A stretch of DNA of 13,517 bases from Hormoscilla sp. (GCA_051439505.1 JBFRWI010000155.1:1-13517), one strand, 5' to 3'; counted from the stretch's first letter, positions 308 to 11,673 are shown. Notes: a model not told the origin generated them from the sequence alone. Numbers and translations: made by a program.

Positions 308-332
308 TGGTTTGGGTTTGTGGAGGTACCAT

Positions 333-3300
333 ATGACTTCAATGTTCGATGCTTTTATCTCTTACGGACGAGCTGATAGCAAAGCCTTTGCTAAAAGACT
401 TCAATCTCGCTTGTCACAACAAGGTTTTAATGTCTGGTTTGACTCCAAGGACATCCCCCTGGCGGTAGATTTCCAGAATGAAATAGATGATGGGATTGAA
501 AAATCACAGAACTTCCTGTTCATCATTAGTCCCCATTCTGTCAATTCGGACTACTGTCGCAAGGAAATTGAGCTAGCAGTTAAGCTGAACAAACGCATCA
601 TCCCACTGTTACACGTCATGGAAATTAGCCGGGAAACCTGGCAAGAAAGAAACCCGAATGACACGGCGTCCGAGTGGGAAGCTTACAAAGCGAAAGGGTC
701 GCACCATACGTACAATAATCCGAAGATGCACCCGATAATTAGCAAGCTCAACGGGTTGTATGTCCGAGAGGGGATAGACGATTTTGAGAAATCATTAGCA
801 GCTTTAATCGATTTACTCGGCCTTCATGCTGATTATATACAACAGCATACCCAGTTGTTAGTCAAGGCTTTGGACTGGGAGCGAAATCAAAAGCAAACCA
901 GCTACCTGTTGACCGGAGAAGAAACCCAGGATGCCTTAAACTGGCTCAAGCACCGCTTTAAGGAGGAGCAATATCCTTGTACTCCCACGGATCTGCACTG
1001 TGAGTTTATCACTGAAAGCATCAAGAATGGCAATAACTTGATGACCCAGGTGTTGCTTTCCTATGCTGATGAGGACCGGGGGACAATGGAGAAGCTTCGC
1101 AATAGTCTGAGGCGATCGGGGATGACGGTTTGGACGAATACAACTGATATTCAAACGGGGGAAGTATTTCCCGAAGCGATTAAACGCGGGATCGAACAGG
1201 CGGATAATTTGGTTTATCTGCTGTCCCCTGACTCGATAAACTCGACTTACTGTCAGCAAGAATTGGATTTAGCGGTGGAGTTAAATAAGCGGATTATTCC
1301 TGTACGGGTGCGAGAGACTGACCCGATGCAGGAACCGACGGCGCTGCGGGATTTGCATTATATTGACCTGACGGATAATGTCAAGGAAGAAGATTACCTG
1401 CGGGATGAAAGCGAACTGTTGAAGATTCTGCTGACTGATGAGGATTACTACAGGAAGCATAAAATGCTGTTGACAAAAGCCCTGAAGTGGCAGGAGCAGC
1501 AAAATAATCCTAGCATTCTCCTGCGGGGGTATAATTTGGGGAGTGCGGAAACTTGGTTGCAGGTGGCGCAAAAAAGGACGCAGCATCGACCTACGCCCTT
1601 ACAGGAAGAATTTATTGCTGAAAGTCAGCGGCGACCGGAGTTAGAGTCCCTGGATGTGTTTATTTCCTATTCCCGTGCCGATTCTGATTTTGCCAGGAAG
1701 CTGAACGATGATTTACAGATCCAGGGGAAGATGACTTGGTTTGACCAGGAAAGTATTGCGGAGGGTACGGATTTTGCCCAGGAGATTAAAAATGGGATTA
1801 AATCCTGTGACAATTTCCTGTTTATTATCTCACCGCGATCGGTAAAATCGCCCTATTGCGAGGATGAGGTGGAGTATGCAGCATCCTTGAATAAACGTTT
1901 TGTGACGGTGGTGCATCGGGAGGTGAATACGGAGGAGGATTTGCATCCCGAGTTGGGGAAGGTGCAGTGGCTTGATTTCCAGCATCAGGGGGATTTTAAT
2001 GCCAAATTTAACCAATTGGTGAGGACGCTAGATACGGACCGGGAACACCTGCGCAGTCATACTAAATGGTTGCAGCGGGCGTGGGATTGGGACCAGAAGC
2101 AGAAAAGTGAGGATTTGTTGTTGCGGGGGAACCAGTGTGCCGTTGCCCTAAACTGGTTGCTGGAAACGGAAAAACAACAGAAAAAGCCTGCCGCGACGAC
2201 CTTGCAGAAGGAATTTATTCAGGCGAGTCAGAGGGCGATGGAAGCGGCACGGGAAGAAGAAAAACGCCGACAAGCTGAAATGCTGCGTTTGCGAACGCAG
2301 GAAGCTGAAGCACGACTGGCCGAACAGAAAAAAACTGCCAGACTACAAATGTTTTCGCTTGGCGCTGTCAGTGTGGCATTGGTAGCTGCTCTTGGCGCTG
2401 GTGGGTTGGCTTTCGTACAGCAGCAGAAATTAGAAAAAGTCATTGAAGCTCAAATCAAATCTTTGGGTCGATTATCCTTGGTACTGACGAACTCAGATCT
2501 GAAGTTTGATGCTCTAGTTGAAGGCATCAGGGCAAAAACGCTACTGAAAAATTTGAATCCAGTTAGGCCAGAAACTCAGGAGCCAGTTTTGACCGCTTTG
2601 CAGCCAGCAGTTTATGAAGTTGGAGAAAAATATAGAGAGCGCGATCGGCTAATCGGGCATAATGATGAGGTCTACAATATTGCCTTCAGCCCCGATGGCC
2701 AGACCATTGCTTCTGCTGGTTTCGACAAAACGGTTAAACTCTGGAGCCAAGAAGGAAAACTGATCAACACTCTTGAGGGCCATGAAGATAAGGTCTACAA
2801 TATTGCCTTCAGCCCCGATGGCAAGACCGTTGCTTCTGCTAGTTATGATGGAACCGTCAAACTCTGGAACCTTCAAGGTCAAGAGCTTAAAACCTTCAAT
2901 GCGTCTGAAGTAAATTGGACCCCTGGCTTCAGACTCGATGGCAAGAATATTGCTTCCAACAGCGTCGCCTTTAGCCCTGATGGCCAGACCATTGCTTCTG
3001 CTAGTTATGACGGAAGCATCAAACTATGGAGCAAAGAAGGAGAACTGCTGAAGACCTTCGAGAAGCAGGAAGATCGTCTCAGCAGCATTGCCTTCAGCCC
3101 GGACGGCCAGACCATTGCTTCTGCTGGTGAGGGCAAGATAGTCAAACTCTGGAACAAAGAAGGACAACTGCTGTACAGTCTGGAGGGGCATGAAGATGCG
3201 GTCTACAGCGTTGCCTTCAGCCCGGACGGCCAGACTCTTGCTTCTGCTAGTTTGGACAAATCTGTCAAACTCTGGAACCTTAAAGGGGAACTGCTGCACA

Positions 3301-4604
3301 CCCTCCAGGGGCATGAAGATGGGGTCAGCAACGTCGCCTTCAGCCCCGATGGCAAGACTATTGCTTCTGCTAGTTGGGACCGAACCATCAAACTCTGGAG
3401 CAAAGAAGGAAAACTGCTGCACACCCTCCAGGGGCATAAAGATGGAGTCAGCAGCGTCACCTTTAGCCCCGATGGCAAGACTATTGCTTCTGCTAGTTTA
3501 GACAAATCTGTCAAACTCTGGAACCTTGCTCAACAACTGCAAACCCTCCACGGTGAGAACTATGGCGCTGTTTTAAGCCCAGACGGCAAAACCATTGCTT
3601 CTGATACTGGGGACGAAACCGTCAAACTCTGGAACAAAGAAGGAAAACTGCTGCACACTCTGAAGGGACATGAAGAATCGATCTACAGCATTACCTTCAG
3701 CCCCGACAGTCAGACCATTGCTTCTACTAGCTGGGACAATACAGTGAAACTCTGGAACAAAGAAGGAAAACTGCTGCATACTCTTGAGGATCATAAAGAG
3801 TTAGTCGAAAGCGTCGCCTTCAGTCCTGATGGTCAGATAATTGCTTCTGCCAGTCGGGACGAAACTGTCAAACTCTGGAATAAAGAAGGTCAACTGCTGT
3901 ACACTCTGAAGGGGCATAAACATTATGTTAAGAGTGTCGCCTTCAGCCCCGACGGTCAGACGATCGCTTCTGTTGATGTGTATACCGTTAAACTCTGGAA
4001 CCTTCAAGGAAAACTGCTACACACCCTAGAGCGGGATAAAGATGCCTTCTTCTATAGTGCTGTTTTCAGCCGCGACGGTCAGATCCTTGCTTCTGCCAGT
4101 TCAGACGGAACCGTCAAACTCTGGAACCTTCAAGGAAAAGAGCTGCACACCCTTGAAGGGCATAAAGACTGGGTCTCCCAAGTCGCCTTCAGCCCCGACG
4201 GCAAGACGATCGCTTCTGCTAGCAAAGACAAAACCGTGAAACTCTGGAACCTTCAAGGAGAACTGCTGCATACCCTAGAGGGGCATGAAGATGCAGCCTT
4301 CCACGTTGCCTTCAGTCCCGACGGCCAGACGATCGCTTCTGATAGTAGGGACGGAACCGTCAAACTCTGGAATCTTCAAGGTCAACTGCTGCAAACTCTC
4401 CAGCTATCTGAAGGTGGGGTTGAAATCGTCGGTTTTAGCGATGATAAGACCCTTGTTTCTGCTGGTGCTGTCAGGAAAGTGATTCTGTGGAATTTAGCAG
4501 ATTTAACTCTAGAATCACTCACGCAGGATGCTTGTGATTGGGTGGGGGATTATCTGAAGCACAATGCCCCAGAGGAGGATAAGAATCTCTGCGACGGATA
4601 TTGA
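333..4604 (+). CDS. Triple TIR-domain, single-TM, WD40-repeat protein (~1423 aa)
   Basis: ATG 333 is preceded by GGAGG (322-326). Three TIR domains begin DAFISY (348), QVLLSY (1047) and DVFISY (1653), each with an SP-x-S-x-x-S-x-YC-x-x-E motif. There is a hydrophobic segment at 2349-2417 and 15 WD40 repeats (GH...FSPDG..IASAS.D.TVKLW) at ~2650-4493. Confidence 0.95.
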   Translation: MTSMFDAFISYGRADSKAFAKRLQSRLSQQGFNVWFDSKDIPLAVDFQNEIDDGIEKSQNFLFIISPHSVNSDYCRKEIELAVKLNKRIIPLLHVMEISRETWQERNPNDTASEWEAYKAKGSHHTYNNPKMHPIISKLNGLYVREGIDDFEKSLAALIDLLGLHADYIQQHTQLLVKALDWERNQKQTSYLLTGEETQDALNWLKHRFKEEQYPCTPTDLHCEFITESIKNGNNLMTQVLLSYADEDRGTMEKLRNSLRRSGMTVWTNTTDIQTGEVFPEAIKRGIEQADNLVYLLSPDSINSTYCQQELDLAVELNKRIIPVRVRETDPMQEPTALRDLHYIDLTDNVKEEDYLRDESELLKILLTDEDYYRKHKMLLTKALKWQEQQNNPSILLRGYNLGSAETWLQVAQKRTQHRPTPLQEEFIAESQRRPELESLDVFISYSRADSDFARKLNDDLQIQGKMTWFDQESIAEGTDFAQEIKNGIKSCDNFLFIISPRSVKSPYCEDEVEYAASLNKRFVTVVHREVNTEEDLHPELGKVQWLDFQHQGDFNAKFNQLVRTLDTDREHLRSHTKWLQRAWDWDQKQKSEDLLLRGNQCAVALNWLLETEKQQKKPAATTLQKEFIQASQRAMEAAREEEKRRQAEMLRLRTQEAEARLAEQKKTARLQMFSLGAVSVALVAALGAGGLAFVQQQKLEKVIEAQIKSLGRLSLVLTNSDLKFDALVEGIRAKTLLKNLNPVRPETQEPVLTALQPAVYEVGEKYRERDRLIGHNDEVYNIAFSPDGQTIASAGFDKTVKLWSQEGKLINTLEGHEDKVYNIAFSPDGKTVASASYDGTVKLWNLQGQELKTFNASEVNWTPGFRLDGKNIASNSVAFSPDGQTIASASYDGSIKLWSKEGELLKTFEKQEDRLSSIAFSPDGQTIASAGEGKIVKLWNKEGQLLYSLEGHEDAVYSVAFSPDGQTLASASLDKSVKLWNLKGELLHTLQGHEDGVSNVAFSPDGKTIASASWDRTIKLWSKEGKLLHTLQGHKDGVSSVTFSPDGKTIASASLDKSVKLWNLAQQLQTLHGENYGAVLSPDGKTIASDTGDETVKLWNKEGKLLHTLKGHEESIYSITFSPDSQTIASTSWDNTVKLWNKEGKLLHTLEDHKELVESVAFSPDGQIIASASRDETVKLWNKEGQLLYTLKGHKHYVKSVAFSPDGQTIASVDVYTVKLWNLQGKLLHTLERDKDAFFYSAVFSRDGQILASASSDGTVKLWNLQGKELHTLEGHKDWVSQVAFSPDGKTIASASKDKTVKLWNLQGELLHTLEGHEDAAFHVAFSPDGQTIASDSRDGTVKLWNLQGQLLQTLQLSEGGVEIVGFSDDKTLVSAGAVRKVILWNLADLTLESLTQDACDWVGDYLKHNAPEEDKNLCDGY
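2650..4493 (+). repeat. Intragenic tandem WD40 repeat array, ~123-nt period, 15 units
   Basis: Recurring GCCTTCAGCCCCGATGGC..ACCATTGCTTCTGCTAG and GTCAAACTCTGGAAC blocks; 41-aa units. Confidence 0.95.
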
Positions 4605-5185: not shown

Positions 5186-5273
5186 AGTCGGTTTTCAACC
5201 GACTTTAGCTATTAGCCGGGGGTTTGAACCCCCGGCGGGCTTTAGCTATGACGCGGGGGTTTGAACGACGGGC
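5186..5273 (-). repeat. Double-hairpin REP/MITE-like repeat, copy B (inverted relative to copy A) plus a degenerate partial third copy
   Basis: The reverse complement of 5186-5240 aligns to 4616-4669 at 48 of 55 positions. 5240-5273 repeats CTTTAGCTAT...CGGGGGTTTGAAC. Confidence 0.85.
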
Positions 5274-6650
5274 CCCCAGTTCCTCAAACACAAGTTGCGC
5301 TAACTTTTCTGCGGCCCCAGGTTGACCGCGTACAGCCCGCAGACGATCGGCCATCTGTTCCAACTTCTCGGGATGGGCCAAAAAGTCCAAAACCAAAGCT
5401 GCCACATCTTGGGACTGAAGCTGACCAACTAATTCAGGGACGATCGCCTCACCGGCCCAAATATTCGGCCAAGCAAATAAGCGACCTTGTCGGAGAACCA
5501 ACCAATTAATTAATTTAGCCAAACTTGAACCAAAAAAAGGTAAATTAGCGAGTAACCCAGGTAACCCATCCCAGGCCCGCATGGCATCCAACTGCTGGGT
5601 AGGCAGCAACACGATCATCGGCACGGCTAAGGCCCCCAATTGGGCCGTATTCGCCCCCACCGTAGTCAAGCATAACATACATTGAGATAAAATATCGTCA
5701 GCGGGAAATTCCGTCCAAAGTTCCACCCGTAAACCAGTTGGAGTTTGCAAACAAGGGCGATCGCCTGCCATCACCAACTCTCCCACCCCCGTCGGCCATT
5801 GTTGAATTAAAGGATTGCGATCGGGGTCGGCAAAAGCTGCTAAAGTGTCCATATCCAAGGTGGGTGCCACGGGAATAACGAACCGAGTTGTCCGCCGCTG
5901 CTTGTAAATCTCCTGGGCAACTGCTAAAGTCAGGGGAACGCCCTGAGATAGCTTGGCAGGTTTTGACCCAGGCAGCAATCCAATCAATTCTAATGGTCCC
6001 ATACCAATTTTCTCATCAAGCCCGCGCAGGCGGGCTTCGTCCTTGTAGCCCCACCCTTGAGGGTGGGGGTATGGAGGTAATTTCTCATCAAGCCCGCCTG
6101 CGCGGGCTTCGTCCTTGTAGCCCCACCCTTGAGGGTGGGGATAGGGGTGAGGGGGCACATCGGCCATCAAGTCCCCAACCACGGTAAACTTACTAGCAAA
6201 TTTAGGCTTGACAGGGGCAGCAATCTCTGGTTTAATCACCCCAAAGCGATCGATCCAACCATGCCAGCGGGCATCCCATTCGGCATAAACCACAGTGCGA
6301 TAACCCAGTCGCCTGGCAATAACCACCGGAAAAAATTGATCGCCTCCCAAGAAAACTACAACACCCCAGTTACTCCAGTCCCAATTGTCCGCCGTTTTCC
6401 CCCAAAGCAAAAATGAGATAAAATATTCGGGTCCTTGTACCCGATCGACTTCTCCATAGGAAAGGGCGATCGCGGCTTCCTTACCGGTAGCATGGGGACA
6501 AGGAGACAGTACCACCGAAATCCTTACCCTCACATCGGGGGACTGTTGGCGCAAAGCTTGCACCACAGGACGCACCCAAGTAGTCACTTCTCCCGGTCCA
6601 TTGGAGAGAATTAAAATATCAGCTATTGAATTTGAGACATTTATGGACAT
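5205..6650 (-). CDS. Lipid-A-disaccharide synthase (LpxB)-like GT-B glycosyltransferase (~481 aa)
   Basis: Motifs DILILSNGPGE, FLGGDQ, VGDLM, LIGLLPGSK, TTVGANTA.L and PNIWAGEAIVPEL are typical of the cyanobacterial LpxB-like paralog. The start is set at ATG 6650 because the extension to 6833 is antisense to the ankyrin gene. Confidence 0.88.
   Translation of the reverse strand: MSINVSNSIADILILSNGPGEVTTWVRPVVQALRQQSPDVRVRISVVLSPCPHATGKEAAIALSYGEVDRVQGPEYFISFLLWGKTADNWDWSNWGVVVFLGGDQFFPVVIARRLGYRTVVYAEWDARWHGWIDRFGVIKPEIAAPVKPKFASKFTVVGDLMADVPPHPYPHPQGWGYKDEARAGGLDEKLPPYPHPQGWGYKDEARLRGLDEKIGMGPLELIGLLPGSKPAKLSQGVPLTLAVAQEIYKQRRTTRFVIPVAPTLDMDTLAAFADPDRNPLIQQWPTGVGELVMAGDRPCLQTPTGLRVELWTEFPADDILSQCMLCLTTVGANTAQLGALAVPMIVLLPTQQLDAMRAWDGLPGLLANLPFFGSSLAKLINWLVLRQGRLFAWPNIWAGEAIVPELVGQLQSQDVAALVLDFLAHPEKLEQMADRLRAVRGQPGAAEKLAQLVFEELGARRSNPRVIAKARRGFKPPANS
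6009..6140. repeat. Two tandem copies (72-nt period) of a two-hairpin GTAG-type REP/SDR inserted in frame in the LpxB-like gene
   Basis: 6009-6068 and 6081-6140 are identical except for a 4-nt loop. The hairpins are AAGCCCGC-N4-GCGGGCTT and GTAG+CCCCACCCTTGAGGGTGGGG. The protein repeats PYPHPQGWGYKDEAR..GLDEK twice. Confidence 0.92.
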
Positions 6651-7128
6651 TATCGAAGCAGTAAAAAACAGCGACCTCTCTACAGTAAAAACCTTGATTG
6701 ACGAAGGTGCCGATGTCAACATCAAAGAAGAATCCGAAGGTTCCACCCCCTTAATCACTGCCGCCGCAGCTGGTAATAATGACATTCTCCAAGCATTATT
6801 AACAGCTGGTGCCGATGTGAATGGGACGGACAATGACGGTTGGACTCCCTTGATGGAAGCTGCTGCTCATGGTAATATAGATATGGTGGAAATTATCCTA
6901 GCCGCTGGCGCTGACGTGAATGCTAAAACTAACTTCGGCATGACCGCTTTAATGACTGCTGCTGCCAAAGGTCATCGCCCGATCGCCCAAACATTATTAG
7001 ACCGAGGTGCGGACCTCAAGGCTAAGGATAACAACAGTTGGACAGCCCTAATTTGGGCGGCATCGGAAAATAAAACTGAAATAGTAGAATTAATCAAAAA
7101 AGCCCGATCGCAGCAAGCTAAAGGCTAA
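6643..7128 (+). CDS. Ankyrin repeat protein (~161 aa, 4-5 repeats)
   Basis: Repeated G.TPL..AA..G...I...LL.AGADVN motifs. The likely start is ATG 6643 (MDIIEAVK) rather than TTG 6601. Confidence 0.93.
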   Translation: MDIIEAVKNSDLSTVKTLIDEGADVNIKEESEGSTPLITAAAAGNNDILQALLTAGADVNGTDNDGWTPLMEAAAHGNIDMVEIILAAGADVNAKTNFGMTALMTAAAKGHRPIAQTLLDRGADLKAKDNNSWTALIWAASENKTEIVELIKKARSQQAKG

Positions 7129-7229
7129 TGGCTAATGGTTAATTGCTAATTGCTAATTGCTAATTGCTAATTGCTAATGGACAACTAACAACTAACTTGG
7201 TGGGCAGTGCCCACCCTACCAACTAACAA
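7124..7229. repeat. Heptamer STRR tracts: (GCTAATK) x8 followed by ACAACTA repeats
   Basis: Eight 7-nt units at 7124-7179 (one is GTTAATT), ACAACTA x2 at 7181-7194, and CAACTAACAA again at 7220-7229. The tracts lie between convergent genes. Confidence 0.92.
7199..7219 (-). repeat. GTAG-family REP element
   Basis: The minus strand reads GTAG-GGTGGGCA-C-TGCCCACC, i.e. a GTAG tetranucleotide plus an 8-bp palindrome. Confidence 0.85.
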
Positions 7230-7232
7230 TTT

Positions 7233-7964
7233 TCAACCTACAAACCCCTGCCAAATTTTCTGGGCCGTATTTCTGATGAAAGGATTGCGGGATAGGGTTT
7301 GACGGAGGGCAGCGCGCGTGATTTGGGCAGAGAAAAACATCAGCACCCGCTTCACCATCTTCTTAGCTGGCCAGGGCAAAACCACCGCCAAAAAACCCGA
7401 GGCGATCGCCTCGGGGGGAGTATTATTATTTAGAGAGGCGATCGCACTACTAAGAGTGGGCAGCCAAACGACCCCCACAGCAACTCCCCAAGATAACCCA
7501 TTAATAAATTGCCTGCTTCTCCTATGCAGGGTACTTAACAATTGATTAATCAGCCAGTGGTGGGTCGCAACAATCTCCAAACAGTAAGGATGTTGTAGAT
7601 AATCCCGACGCACTTGGTTAATCACATCTCCATCCGCAGACAGTACCGTCCGCAACACGAATTGTCCCTGTCTGCTTCCTATCTGTTGACCGTCTTGCTG
7701 GTTAACTAAATAAGTACAAAAGGTCAGTCCAGACTGAATGCGGTTGCCATCATCGAACAGCGCCAACTTTTGCAGCGAGGCCACCAAACGCCAGGGAATT
7801 TGCAACCGTTCTCCCCGATATCGGGCTACTTGAATTGCCTGTAACACTGGCTGATTCAAATAGAAAATCAACTCCCCCTCTTCTATGCCAATGCATTGAG
7901 CTAAAGAATTATCTCGAACTTCTTGCCGCCGCCGGGCCAACCACCGCCAAAATTTTGCAATCAC
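7233..7964 (-). CDS. Hypothetical membrane protein (243 aa, two C-terminal hydrophobic segments)
   Basis: Open frame whose GTG start overlaps the upstream TGA (GTGA at 7961-7964). Hydrophobic segments FINGLSWGVAVGVVWLPTL and AIASGFLAVVLPW, followed by a basic C-terminus. Confidence 0.82.
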   Translation of the reverse strand: MIAKFWRWLARRRQEVRDNSLAQCIGIEEGELIFYLNQPVLQAIQVARYRGERLQIPWRLVASLQKLALFDDGNRIQSGLTFCTYLVNQQDGQQIGSRQGQFVLRTVLSADGDVINQVRRDYLQHPYCLEIVATHHWLINQLLSTLHRRSRQFINGLSWGVAVGVVWLPTLSSAIASLNNNTPPEAIASGFLAVVLPWPAKKMVKRVLMFFSAQITRAALRQTLSRNPFIRNTAQKIWQGFVG

Positions 7965-8740
7965 CTGCCGTAATCTCCCGGTCTAGTTGGGAAATCCGAT
8001 GGCTGCAATTCTATAGGTCTAAATGGCAAATCACTACCACCCGGACCTCGCTGAATAATCGCTTGGACTATATTCACCATAAATGCCAATATACCGTGCC
8101 ACTGCTGTTCTCCAGATGACACTCCCTGAGAGTGGATGCTGACGAGCGTCTGTCTGAATTCACTTGACAGCAGCTGTTCGTGGTAGCGGTTGATAATATC
8201 CCCATCTAGCTGCATTATCGTTTGGGCATAGATAATGTCCGTCGTTTCTGATTGCAAATCCGAGCTATCCAACGCGGATTTAAGTTCAATTATTTTCCGC
8301 AAGCCCCGTAGGAATCTCCCATTATCTAGCAGCCGTTGCAACTTTTGTTGCTCGTTAGGATCTCCGGGATTTGGCAATCTTTCCTGGGTATCGAATATAT
8401 CTGCGATCGGGTCTTGCACCAGCTGACGATACTCCCAAGCTAATTTTTTGCGTAAGTTTCTATAGCGAGGGTATAAAGCTAGTGGTATTTGCCTCTCCAC
8501 AAAGTATCTGTTGTCCATTTCTGAAGCCGGAATTTCATAGATGTATTGATACGCCTCCTCAGGAATAAACTTGTTTCCCGATATCTGAGCCACTATCATC
8601 GTATTTACCTCTAGGGCTGTGATGTCATTCATCACTTCACCCAAAGACCGAATAAATTCCTTAAACCTCTCCTGCAACCTATTCGTTTCTTTCTCAAATC
8701 TATCGGGTTGTTCCTCGATTTCCGTATTCGGCATCGGCAT
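7961..8740 (-). CDS. Hypothetical protein (259 aa)
   Basis: ATG with AGGAG 7 nt upstream. Globular-looking sequence containing LEVNT and QT.MQLDGDI...H motifs. Confidence 0.88.
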   Translation of the reverse strand: MPMPNTEIEEQPDRFEKETNRLQERFKEFIRSLGEVMNDITALEVNTMIVAQISGNKFIPEEAYQYIYEIPASEMDNRYFVERQIPLALYPRYRNLRKKLAWEYRQLVQDPIADIFDTQERLPNPGDPNEQQKLQRLLDNGRFLRGLRKIIELKSALDSSDLQSETTDIIYAQTIMQLDGDIINRYHEQLLSSEFRQTLVSIHSQGVSSGEQQWHGILAFMVNIVQAIIQRGPGGSDLPFRPIELQPSDFPTRPGDYGR

Positions 8741-8854
8741 CTACATCTCCTGGTTTGATAAATTACTATTCCCAATCTGAACGATCTCTTGAGAGCATGT
8801 CAACTTTGTCAATAAGGATTTTGGCTCTTCAACATAATTACCTGCTTCTGAGGT

Positions 8855-8887
8855 CAACTGACCACTGACAACTGACCACTGACAACT
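8855..8887. repeat. Heptamer STRR tract (CMACTGA) x4.7
   Basis: CAACTGA CCACTGA CAACTGA CCACTGA CAACT. Confidence 0.85.
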
Positions 8888-8906
8888 TCTCCCTTTCTCA
8901 GTAATT

Positions 8907-8936
8907 GTAAGCATTCAGCGATCGCTGAATGCTTAC
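8907..8936. repeat. 30-bp perfect palindrome centred on HIP1 (possible terminator or RNA-stabilising hairpin)
   Basis: GTAAGCATTCA-GCGATCGC-TGAATGCTTAC, 20 nt downstream of the stop codon of the acidic-protein gene. Confidence 0.85.
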
Positions 8937-8955
8937 CTTTTGGGGCGATCGAGTG

Positions 8956-11673
8956 CTAACGCTTTTTCTTTGACTGCTGGGAAGAAGGCGACTCTACCAG
9001 TTCGAGATCTGCAAATGGATCCTCTAAATTTCCTACATTTACATCATCATCGAACAGCGAATCGAGATCGTCTGCTTCTTCGCCCCCAGAATTGATATCT
9101 GACTCCTCGTCGGACTCAGCAAATAATTCCGCCAAGGGGTCGAATTCCTCTTCACTCTCGAAATCGCTAGCTGGCGCCGGTGCATCGTTCGTATTTGCTA
9201 ATAAAGCCGCTAGCGGGTCATCCGACTCTTCATCATAACTGCTATCGTCCTTTGTTGTTGCTGTCGCCTTAGTGCCATTGCTTTGGGATGAATCCCACAT
9301 TTGGGGTTGTTCGCCAAACATATCTGCATCGAAATCATCTAGGTCCGATTCTTCCGTATCGAACATCGACCCTGGCGTTTCCTCTGCTGTCTGGGATGCA
9401 GCTGAAGAGAACGCATCATCTAGATCTTCGCCGCCCAGATCTGCACCCGTCGTGCCCGGGTATGGCTGAGGTTCGTCAAACCCCGCATCTGCATCCCCGT
9501 CATTATCGAATACGCTCATCAAAGCCGCATCATCGTCATCATCGAAGGGATTGGACTCTGAGGGCAATTCTAATTCCTGGGACTCCGCTAGTGCTGCCGA
9601 TTCACCCCAGAGGTTTTCTAACTCCTGGTTCTGTTCCATCTCATTTATCCCCAAGGCATCGTCATCCCCTTCTGGCATCTCCAGCAACTCCGGTGCTTGC
9701 GTCTCTGGGGTTTCCGACGAGTCCCACAGAGAGTCTAACTCTTCAGGAGAGGCACTCTCGTCTACCTCTAACTCTTCTGCCACTTCCATGCCAGATGAAC
9801 CAAATACATCTGCTAATGCTTCATCATCCCCATCCATTGGCAAGGCATATTCATCAATTTCTTCATTTGGGACTGCCATTGCTTCCTCTCCAGTTTCCCC
9901 TTCTTCCCCGAGGAAGTCTAGGTCCTCATTCGATTCCCACTCATCCTGTTGGCCTGCTGAAGAAGCGGCTGCTGGATCGTCCTCTAAAACCGTTGGCCAT
10001 TCAGCCGTTGAGTCTGCTTCCCAGGAAGTTTCCGGTTCTTCCCAGCTAACTGCTAACTCTTCTTCGCCAGTACCCATGAGATCGGCAGATGCTTCATCAT
10101 CTATTCCCAGTGCCAGAGACTCTGCTTCTGTATCCGACGGCAACTCGGGCTCATCCTCCCAGCTGGATTCTAACTCTTGTTCCGTTTCCAACGCGCCCAG
10201 GATCTCGGCTGTTTCGTCCTCTTTTATCTCTGTGGACCCCGATGCTTCTGTCTCTAGGGCACCCATAATCTCTACTTCCGAATCTTCTATTACCGGTTCA
10301 TCCTCCATTGCTGGCTCGACTAAGGTCTCTGCCAAGGGGTCGGGTGCCATTGGTTCTGGTTCCGGTTCGTCTGCCAATAATTCGGTATCATCCCAGCTGG
10401 ATGCTAACTGTTGTGTCCCATCCATCATCCCTAGGTCTGCTAACGGATCGGACTCCATTGACTCAACGAATGTATCGGGGTCGCCATCTGTAGCTGTTTC
10501 CTCGAACGCTACTGGTTCTTCCGAGGGCGGAGTTTCCAGTAATTCCGTTTCATCCCAGGTCGATGCTAAATCTGGCGGTGTCTCCAACTCCTCGTCCAGA
10601 CCATCTGTAGTATCGTCATCCAGAGCGATATTTTCTGATGCTTCTGAAGAACTCAGGTCACTTTCATCCCATGTCGAGGCTAAATCTGGGGATGCCTCCA
10701 ACTCCGAGTCCAGACCATCTGTAGTCTCGTCATCTAGAGCGAGATTTTCTGATGCTTCTGAGTCTGTCAGGTCGCTTTCCTCCCAGGTCGATGCTAAATC
10801 TGGGGATGTCTCCAACTCCTCGCTCATCCCATCTGTAGTTCCTTCCTCCAGATCGAGATTTTCTGATGCTTCTGACTCACTCAGGTCACTTTCTGGGGCT
10901 GTTTCATCTTCCCGAGAGCCCCATGCCGCTGCTGCCGCTGCCGCCATCCCTACTACTGCTGCCGTTCCTGCTGCCACTGCTGCTGTCTTCAGGGCCGAAT
11001 TTCCCCCGGCGTCCTTTTCTGCTGAGGGTGCTGCTGTTTCGGGGGCCTCTGTTACAGAGGCCAAATCATCTGCCGATCCATCTAACTGGAAGGCCGCCAT
11101 CACCTCGGCGTCATCATCTGCATTCGTCGGGAGTGAGTCTTCTGTTTCGGTGTTTGAACTCACTGGGGAAGTGACTGGTTCCTCTGGGTGCGCCCCTAGG
11201 TCTGGCTCCGACCAAGCTGCCGATCTCGTGCTGCTACCTGGGGCGATCGCATCTGGTTGTATACTTTTTAGTTCTGGTGAATGGGTTTTGCCATCTTGGG
11301 CCGCTACCGTCTGCTGTGTCATTCCCACCCACAGTTCCAGCAGTTTCTGTAAACTGGAGATATTTCTTTCTATTATCTGACCGCTGGCCTGCATCTGGCT
11401 GACGTGAAAATCCCGCAGTTCGGCAAACTTCTCGCCTTCGAGGAATTTGCTACCGATTTCCGTTTCGATCTTGCCCTCTACAATGTTCAGCCTCGTGCGC
11501 ATTATCTGAGAACTATCCCCCTTTTCCCTTGCCTGGGAACCGCTCTCGGGGTTTGACGAGGCGATCGTCGTCGTAATTTCCAACTCGATCGACTGTCCTA
11601 ATGCCGTTTTCAGGGCATCTACTATTCTACCTTCCTTGAGCGCTGCTTTGAACTCTTCGCTTGTTGCTGCCAT
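8956..11673 (-). CDS. Hypothetical protein (~905 aa): ~120-aa N-terminal domain plus a very long D/E-rich disordered region
   Basis: Likely ATG at 11673 (MAATSEEF) after the purine-rich GGGAAGGGGA. It has an Ala-rich hydrophobic stretch (~10921-10990), three 38-aa repeats, an acidic tail and a KKKR end. Confidence 0.88.
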   Translation of the reverse strand: MAATSEEFKAALKEGRIVDALKTALGQSIELEITTTIASSNPESGSQAREKGDSSQIMRTRLNIVEGKIETEIGSKFLEGEKFAELRDFHVSQMQASGQIIERNISSLQKLLELWVGMTQQTVAAQDGKTHSPELKSIQPDAIAPGSSTRSAAWSEPDLGAHPEEPVTSPVSSNTETEDSLPTNADDDAEVMAAFQLDGSADDLASVTEAPETAAPSAEKDAGGNSALKTAAVAAGTAAVVGMAAAAAAAWGSREDETAPESDLSESEASENLDLEEGTTDGMSEELETSPDLASTWEESDLTDSEASENLALDDETTDGLDSELEASPDLASTWDESDLSSSEASENIALDDDTTDGLDEELETPPDLASTWDETELLETPPSEEPVAFEETATDGDPDTFVESMESDPLADLGMMDGTQQLASSWDDTELLADEPEPEPMAPDPLAETLVEPAMEDEPVIEDSEVEIMGALETEASGSTEIKEDETAEILGALETEQELESSWEDEPELPSDTEAESLALGIDDEASADLMGTGEEELAVSWEEPETSWEADSTAEWPTVLEDDPAAASSAGQQDEWESNEDLDFLGEEGETGEEAMAVPNEEIDEYALPMDGDDEALADVFGSSGMEVAEELEVDESASPEELDSLWDSSETPETQAPELLEMPEGDDDALGINEMEQNQELENLWGESAALAESQELELPSESNPFDDDDDAALMSVFDNDGDADAGFDEPQPYPGTTGADLGGEDLDDAFSSAASQTAEETPGSMFDTEESDLDDFDADMFGEQPQMWDSSQSNGTKATATTKDDSSYDEESDDPLAALLANTNDAPAPASDFESEEEFDPLAELFAESDEESDINSGGEEADDLDSLFDDDVNVGNLEDPFADLELVESPSSQQSKKKR
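10550..10893 (-). repeat. Three intragenic tandem 114-nt (38-aa) repeats
   Basis: TTTTCTGATGCTTCTGA occurs at 10631, 10745 and 10859. The peptide unit is ESDL..SEASEN..L...TTDG...ELE..PDLASTW. Confidence 0.92.

Follow-up and report, generated by a model that had tools for sequence, protein, structure and literature searches.

HubP of Vibrio and FimV of Pseudomonas are acidic landmark proteins with a polar or septal location and a functional link to type IV pili or polar ATPases, each a single chain that carries a periplasmic LysM domain, a transmembrane (TM) helix and a C-terminal TPR-like domain. The positioning of membrane-associated machines in cyanobacteria is poorly understood. YbaB/EbfC proteins (Pfam PF02575) have an alpha1/beta1/beta2/beta3/alpha'/alpha2 fold and form tweezer-shaped homodimers that bind DNA or a client helix. 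The YbaB fold is an obligate-type dimer that can bind protein clients in its dimeric form, as in chloroplast STIC2, which binds Alb3 and Alb4 (PMC11480477). Here, we analyzed a window of 13,517 nucleotides from Hormoscilla sp., the entire 13.5-kb contig from a 6.47-Mb genome, in which three minus-strand open reading frames (ORFs), termed A, B and C, are flanked by a glutamate dehydrogenase-family gene and an ankyrin gene. A sequence-only reading of the window had proposed that the three genes encode ancient paralogs that co-assemble through one unnamed domain. We propose, with a probability of roughly 45%, that the products of A, B and C form a heteromeric scaffold that is tethered to a membrane and recruits partners through an arm rich in acidic residues and tryptophan. 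The genes and their parts are as follows.

8956..11673, minus strand: gene A (A2 type), ORF of 905 aa, a folded N-terminal domain and a 780-aa acidic tail
11299..11673, minus strand: A domain, residues 1-125, with G67 at 11473-75 and H90 at 11404-06 (AlphaFold2 mean pLDDT, the predicted local confidence, 82.9)
8959..11298, minus strand: acidic low-complexity tail of A, predicted to be disordered (30.8% D+E, 1.7% K+R)
10548..10893, minus strand: 114-bp (38-aa) repeat, three copies within the A tail (Tandem Repeats Finder, 84% matches)
8741..8955, no strand: A-B spacer of 215 bp, with a 7-bp tandem repeat at 8855-8887 and a 28-bp perfect palindrome at 8908-8935
7961..8740, minus strand: gene B, ORF of 259 aa, soluble; strand motif LEVNTM, then a helical insert, then the common module
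8261..8572, minus strand: helical insert of B, about residues 57-160 (AlphaFold2 block pLDDT mostly 84-97)
8078..8239, minus strand: B module, residues 168-221, AQTxxQLDGDIINRY...H203, with G180 at 8201-03 and H203 at 8132-34 (G and H invariant, 40/40)
7233..7964, minus strand: gene C, 243 aa, whose GTG start overlaps the B stop (GTGA); module, then predicted membrane helices
7506..7667, minus strand: C module, residues 100-153, RTVLSADGDVINQV...H135-H-W, with G112 at 7629-31 and H135 at 7560-62
7431..7487, minus strand: top hydrophobic stretch of C, about residues 160-178, a predicted membrane helix (Kyte-Doolittle 19-residue mean 1.67)

The A protein resembles HubP and FimV in its arm, a very long acidic low-complexity stretch that would be cytoplasmic and tied to the membrane, and a possible link to type IV pili, through co-expression of the Synechococcus gene A1305 with pilT, would be a second resemblance. 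However, in this operon the anchor and the arm are encoded by separate genes, no periplasmic domain is apparent, and the Nostoc operon is regulated oppositely to the pil genes; the FimV, LysM and TPR models of Pfam and NCBIfam did not match the 905-aa protein. PopZ-type scaffolds appear similar in that a small folded domain is joined to an acidic, proline-containing disordered region, a possible recruiter of clients. In contrast to PopZ, the A domain is predicted to be alpha/beta and not a helical assembly, and there are several paralogs together with a dedicated membrane subunit. Searches for PopZ homology gave no Pfam or NCBIfam match.

The common module and its paralogy

The common module is a strand-strand-helix unit of about 55 aa. 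All six codons assigned to its conserved G and H by the sequence-only reading do encode G or H when read on the minus strand. The full pattern given there matches 3 of the 18,161 stop-to-stop ORFs (at least 80 aa) of the genome, namely A, B and C only. Because the pattern was fitted to these three proteins, this match is weak taken alone; we therefore built independent family profiles from orthologs (75 A1, 70 A2, 104 B and 96 C, where A1 is the bare-domain and A2 the tailed type of A). Among the 18,161 ORFs, B came second with the A-family profile, at E 0.04-0.05 when A1 or all A sequences were used and at 0.68 for A2 alone; the B and C profiles each placed the other protein third, with the motif itself as the aligned stretch. 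In the profile-profile comparison of the domains that had been suggested as a check, hhalign returned a probability of 89.5 for B-C (E 2e-6), 51 for A1-C, 25 for A1-B, 11 for A2-C and 4 for A2-B. Four of the five pairs beat all 30 block-shuffled controls, A2-B being the pair that failed, and the A1-B value was barely above its reversed control of 18.

Profiles restricted to the module were then compared with 18,155 decoy ORFs. Orthologs scoring above the best decoy numbered 90/104 for C against B, 41/104 for A against B, 43/96 for B against C, 15/75 for B+C against A1 and 13/70 for B+C against A2; the weak directions were A against C (3/96) and B against A2 (0/70). In most directions, most orthologs scored within the top 1% of decoys. 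When one family was left out of training, the A+C profile recovered B from the genome at E 0.0025 and the A+B profile recovered C at E 0.07, each as the best non-training match, and the B+C module profile did not recover the window's own A protein at E<=500. These data show that the common module is a genuine paralogous unit, for which paralogy is well supported, with B and C the closest pair, and the claim of ancient paralogy is backed by profile rankings, hhalign and decoy comparisons alike.

The module His was present in 61/61 A, 40/40 B and 56/57 C sequences, and the G in 40/40 B and 56/57 C, such that the expectation of conservation in orthologs held; in the A family, T35 and H90 were invariant across the 61 sequences. 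The G-to-H spacing of 23 residues is identical in all three window proteins, as had been noted, but it is not a family-wide constant, since it is 23 in 58/61 A and 31/40 B and 24 in 46/57 C. The residues after the His are family specific (HxxQV, HxEGV and HYWL), and the D preceding the G is conserved in just 44% of A. The upstream strand that had been read as recurring (LTFCT, LEVNT, LEITT) proved to be conserved inside each family, but no cross-family alignment placed the strands in register; homology of this strand among A, B and C is plausible from the sequences. AlphaFold2 predicts for the A domain the order helix-helix-strand-strand-strand-long helix, with two short helices and a final helix of 40 residues. 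The B model is confident in the insert and unreliable within the common module, and the topology could not be fixed by mean-field coupling analysis, in which noise prevailed for both A (effective sequence number, Meff, 174) and B (Meff 107).

No significant match for A, B or C was obtained in the Pfam, NCBIfam, PADLOC and PHROG libraries, in agreement with the earlier failure to assign a named family, and no PDB family fitted: the best matches by sequence profile had E values of 0.38-1.2. Fold searches with the A and B models returned nothing at E<=0.001 or Z>=8, and the B insert had no PDB match at Z>=8. PADLOC defense models gave no match for the three window proteins and one weak match (E 0.01) among four orthologs. 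The ESM Atlas held no usable match for B and, for an A1 protein, only leads at 0.79-0.80; plasmid and phage collections contained no match for an A1 protein, and B was unmatched in plasmids. Labels of "CheZ" or "J domain-containing" on 4 of the 120 Nostoc B homologs listed were not used, as neither precomputed domains nor Pfam scans of 40 further B members supported them. Ortholog tags and accessions, the alr/all tags among them being guesses, were unmatched in the searchable literature, which did not include subscription papers and bioRxiv supplements. The feature is real, and the domain family, uncatalogued in the libraries searched, and its operon are undescribed.

Operon organization, acidic tail and surroundings

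Gene order was compared in the best 80 of 240 confirmed B loci, contig ends included. The order was AABC in 49, ABC in 18, BC in 7, AAB in 4, AB in 1 and B alone in 1. Where the contig left room, C followed B in 70/75 loci and A lay upstream of B in 57/57, 42 of them with two A genes, so that the proposed neighborhood conservation was borne out. The full operon comprises A1, which is the domain alone at about 150 aa, A2, in which the domain bears an acidic tail, B (helical insert) and C (predicted membrane helices), and the window genes are a reduced form of this conserved A1-A2-B-C operon. The three-gene system of the sequence-only reading was thus correct as a conserved operon but missed its canonical fourth gene, A1. 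The operon lies directly after maf in 37 of the 73 loci with an upstream neighbor, and psbP is often there too.

In a quick tree of the 87 of 143 rows left after thinning at 75% identity, A1 and A2 were largely separate (5 label changes versus 29 when shuffled), and the window A grouped with a tailed Roseofilum A2 protein (SH-aLRT 92). The window gene is the only A-family gene of its genome; A1 was found neither there nor in the 4/4 Hormoscilla genomes searched, each with one A gene, and A1 was therefore likely lost in the Hormoscilla lineage. Among named relatives, Hormoscilla loci come nearest to gene B, with 76-79% identity.

The distribution was sampled in 300 genomes of the phylum besides this one, in which kin are not independent and B was sought with a single-sequence query. 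A was found in 34/300 genomes and B in 26/300; all 26 B genomes also carry A, and C was present in 26/26 of them. No credible C match was found in the 8 A-only genomes, where the B profile was also negative (0/8), or in 20 A-negative genomes tested (0/20). C is retained even when unlinked, in 2 genomes and in 4/4 Moorena genomes tested. Among the genomes searched the spread is patchy, with 8/35 in genome family f6 and 0/18 in f7. The domain family comprises at least 781 representatives at 50% identity, and the best 150 of these include no relative from outside the cyanobacteria. Two variants stand out among the genome families. In f9 (L145-L150), A1 and A2 occur alone with no B or C found, directly after maf in 4/6. 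In f13, C is unlinked, about 140 aa long and has one C-terminal hydrophobic helix (L157 1007-1465; L158 1216-1653), and B measures only 183-207 aa; together with the short C, it makes up a pared-down variant that should lend itself to structural studies.

The three-part anatomy of anchor, soluble subunit and acidic arm is supported by composition and hydropathy. With a Kyte-Doolittle 19-residue mean of 1.6 as the threshold, a TM-like segment was seen in 0/104 B orthologs and in no A protein, whereas 85/96 C orthologs have at least one and 55/96 have two; in the window C, a second, weaker hydrophobic stretch follows residues 160-178. The fold of A, the membrane helices of C and the disorder of the tail are all model predictions. 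The A2 tails of 69 orthologs have a median length of 442 aa (range 92-1440) and contain 13-38% D+E, and none of 70 A2 N-terminal domains contains a hydrophobic segment. The motif [DE]3-W-[GDE]-[DE], picked after the commonest 4-mers had been inspected, occurs in 46/69 tails, compared with a mean of 1.7 and a maximum of 4 in shuffles. Given this conserved motif, the tail is more than charge. The window tail (8959..11298) carries 14 tryptophans, most in an acidic context and in like surroundings (for example, SWEDE and EWES), and DP[LF]xxL motifs close to its end. Tail length is extreme in some orthologs, which reach 1,580-2,090 aa and are nearly all acidic tail (L156 3895-10158; L079; L085); in others the tail is shorter than 100 aa.

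The GTGA overlap of B and C is present in the sequence as described, and an AGGAG ribosome-binding-like site lies in the A-B spacer ahead of B. A terminator scan found no terminator-like match in the spacer (8741..8955), and promoter and terminator scans gave results at chance level. The 28-bp perfect palindrome at 8908-8935, with the center GCGATCGC, lies directly past the A stop codon; it could act as a transcript stabilizer or attenuator and, in part, underlie the A>B>C gradient described below.

Outside the operon, an LpxB-related gene (5205-6833, minus strand; weak TIGR03492 match, E 1.8e-4) diverges from the ankyrin-repeat gene (6601-7128, plus strand), their 5' ends overlapping or abutting. 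In 8 related loci, too, the operon is followed downstream by the LpxB-like gene. Within this gene, two copies of a 66-bp palindrome-rich repeat with 72-bp spacing (6009-6146) are in frame and insert two PYPHPQGWGYKDEAR-type peptides into the protein, and two copies of a 34-bp repeat (5203-5273) lie at its end. Heptamer tandem repeats are found downstream of the ankyrin gene (7117-7180) and in the A-B spacer (8855-8887). A plus-strand gene (312-4604) encodes a 1430-aa protein judged by eye to combine TIR-like domains, present in repeated copies, with a hydrophobic segment and a WD40 propeller.

Expression of orthologs

In Nostoc punctiforme, B is ACC83222.1/B2J070, and Npun_R4877/B2J071 is an A1 protein, confirmed by peptides (PMC12188702, Data Set S1); the gene order (PMC6495340, supplement 1) agrees with loci L007 and L109. 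The presence of Npun_R4877 in a culture-medium proteome (PMC12188702) is not counted as a sign of export, as the list contains hundreds of proteins. In Synechococcus PCC 7002, A1305-A1307 are flanked by maf (A1304) and rpaA (A1308) (PMC5062996), an arrangement shared with loci L134 and L006, and were assigned by gene order and label, not by sequence comparison. A1305 has been detected as a protein (PMC11962424) and is annotated "surface protein SdrI, putative" (PMC5062996). Its long Asp/Glu/Ser-rich low-complexity sequence is reminiscent of that label. Sdr/MSCRAMM surface proteins are marked by an export signal, Ig-like adhesin domains and a sortase anchor; however, Sdr/MSCRAMM domains gave no Pfam or NCBIfam match, and the A2 N terminus has no hydrophobic segment, although no dedicated signal-peptide predictor was run. 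The label looks composition driven.

The transcript level descends from A to C in the orthologs. Reads for Npun_R4877/R4876/R4875 fell together during hormogonium induction, from 217/63/4 (0 h) to 47/11/0 (12 h), and their levels remain up in a sigJ mutant (PMC6495340); the medians for A1305/A1306/A1307 were 124/64/46 (PMC5062996 data). Over 42 conditions in the latter data, Spearman correlations were 0.69 for A1305-A1306 and 0.46 for A1305-A1307. In the published network, where an edge requires Z>=4.5 in 75% of 500 runs, the degree of A1305 is 2, and both edges lead to pilT genes, A0697 and A1212 (PMC5062996). These two pilT genes are mutually linked, and therefore they represent one signal, not two. 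Among the 15 rows compared, the Spearman values of A1305 were 0.80 and 0.81 with the pilT genes, 0.66 with pilB, 0.63 with hypB and 0.12 with pilA (PMC5062996 data).

A proposed membrane-tethered scaffold and its alternatives

In the scaffold that we propose, the products of distant paralogs would assemble through the common strand-strand-helix module on the cytoplasmic face of a membrane. C would be the predicted membrane anchor, B a likely adaptor and A the likely more abundant subunit, with the A2 arm recruiting clients through its acidic-Trp motifs. Co-assembly of A, B and C is inferred from co-occurrence, the B/C overlap and co-expression; recruitment by the tail and the client are likewise putative. 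Synteny, the retention of C when unlinked, the A-to-C transcript gradient and the acidic-Trp motif of the tails also speak for the scaffold, and the obligate-type dimer of the nearest fold, YbaB, would be in keeping with it. The likeliest named client would be the type IV pilus retraction ATPase PilT, although we regard this assignment, which draws on one co-expression data set, as doubtful; if it is so, the scaffold would work in a HubP/FimV-like manner, but from several chains. In an unlikely, more specific form, the products would make a four-paralog landmark complex in which the membrane subunit and adaptor nucleate many A copies and the arm captures PilT-type motors, setting the place and time of pilus retraction.

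Several observations weigh against this proposal. The window C has one segment barely above the TM threshold (1.67 versus 1.6), and 11/96 C orthologs are without any TM-like segment. Of the A-positive genomes, 8/34 have no detectable B or C; A therefore functions without this anchor, and membrane anchoring, which had been read as part of the system, is not obligatory for the domain. Subunit sets also differ, with A2 missing from Nostoc loci and A1 from the Hormoscilla lineage. Within the Synechococcus operon, the A1306-A1307 correlation is just 0.26, and A1306 also follows maf (0.65) and psbP (0.60) (PMC5062996 data). As to pili, a search of the 80 neighborhoods turned up no pilT-like gene, and in motile hormogonia the N. 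punctiforme operon drops 4-5-fold, against a 20-170-fold increase in pilT1, pilT2 and pilB (PMC6495340). This opposite change argues against a general motility role, although Nostoc is without A2. Finally, the invariant His and the conserved T, D, N and Q could fit a ligand or catalytic site equally well.

The last point leads to an alternative in which the module would serve ligand binding or catalysis: where the subunits of an oligomer meet, the invariant His of each would bind a metal or cofactor or take up a phosphoryl group, while the tail buffers cations such as Ca2+. The near-invariance of the His in all three families, with a conserved T, D-G-D, N and Q nearby, and the acidity of the tails would suit such a unit, but no enzyme or phosphotransfer family and no fold matched, the residues after the His vary by family, the D before the G is poorly kept in A, and cation buffering leaves the conserved Trp motif unexplained; we consider this unlikely. 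A different division of labor, in which the paralogs are co-transcribed yet form no common complex and act separately or only in the pairs A1-A2 and B-C, is improbable in our estimation. Genome family f9, with its A1 and A2 alone, the closeness by profile and perfect co-occurrence of B and C, and the widely differing transcript levels would all be accommodated. Against it, every genome with B and C also had A (26/26), and A stood upstream of B at every locus with room (57/57).

We also asked whether A, B and C could be remote YbaB/EbfC-fold client adaptors in membrane-protein biogenesis, similar to STIC2. The predicted A domain is like YbaB/EbfC in its helix, three-stranded sheet, long helix and similar size, and YbaB structures top both fold searches for A (Foldseek: 1j8b and 1pug, E 0.23-0.66; VIA-align: 3f42, Z 5.2, rmsd 4.2 Å over 81 aligned residues, then 1ybx at 4.1 and 5yrx at 3.8). 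The frequent position of the operon after psbP-maf and the vegetative-cell transcript in Nostoc would also fit. However, these fold scores lie at background level, a comparison with 30 YbaB sequences by hhalign gave probabilities of 0.1-1.2%, no better than reversed controls, and PF02575 matched neither the window proteins nor any of 61 A, 40 B and 57 C members. A YbaB match at rank 8 in a genome scan was rejected as a short helix match out of register. A canonical YbaB is already present in 41/41 genomes, and, unlike YbaB/EbfC, the A-B-C family has an invariant His, a patchy spread and four operon paralogs bearing a tail, an insert or membrane helices. This relationship is decidedly improbable. 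The notion that the common motif is a chance resemblance of unrelated genes is hardly credible: the A-B and A-C hhalign values are modest (4-51%) and few or no orthologs exceed the best decoy in the A-to-C and B-to-A2 directions, but ranks of 2-3 among all genome ORFs, the leave-one-out matches and the high scores of most orthologs relative to the decoys (top 1% in most directions) stand against it.

The scaffold model is directly testable, because orthologs are expressed in the tractable N. punctiforme (Npun_R4877-R4875) and, by gene order, in PCC 7002 (A1305-A1307). The analysis identifies a modular four-paralog operon that is retained in about one in nine sampled cyanobacterial genomes and whose domain has no entry in the searched libraries. 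If the model is true, a modular scaffold tethered to a membrane would represent a novel type of component, and a landmark complex of this type, if true, would be an independently evolved, multichain counterpart of HubP/FimV.

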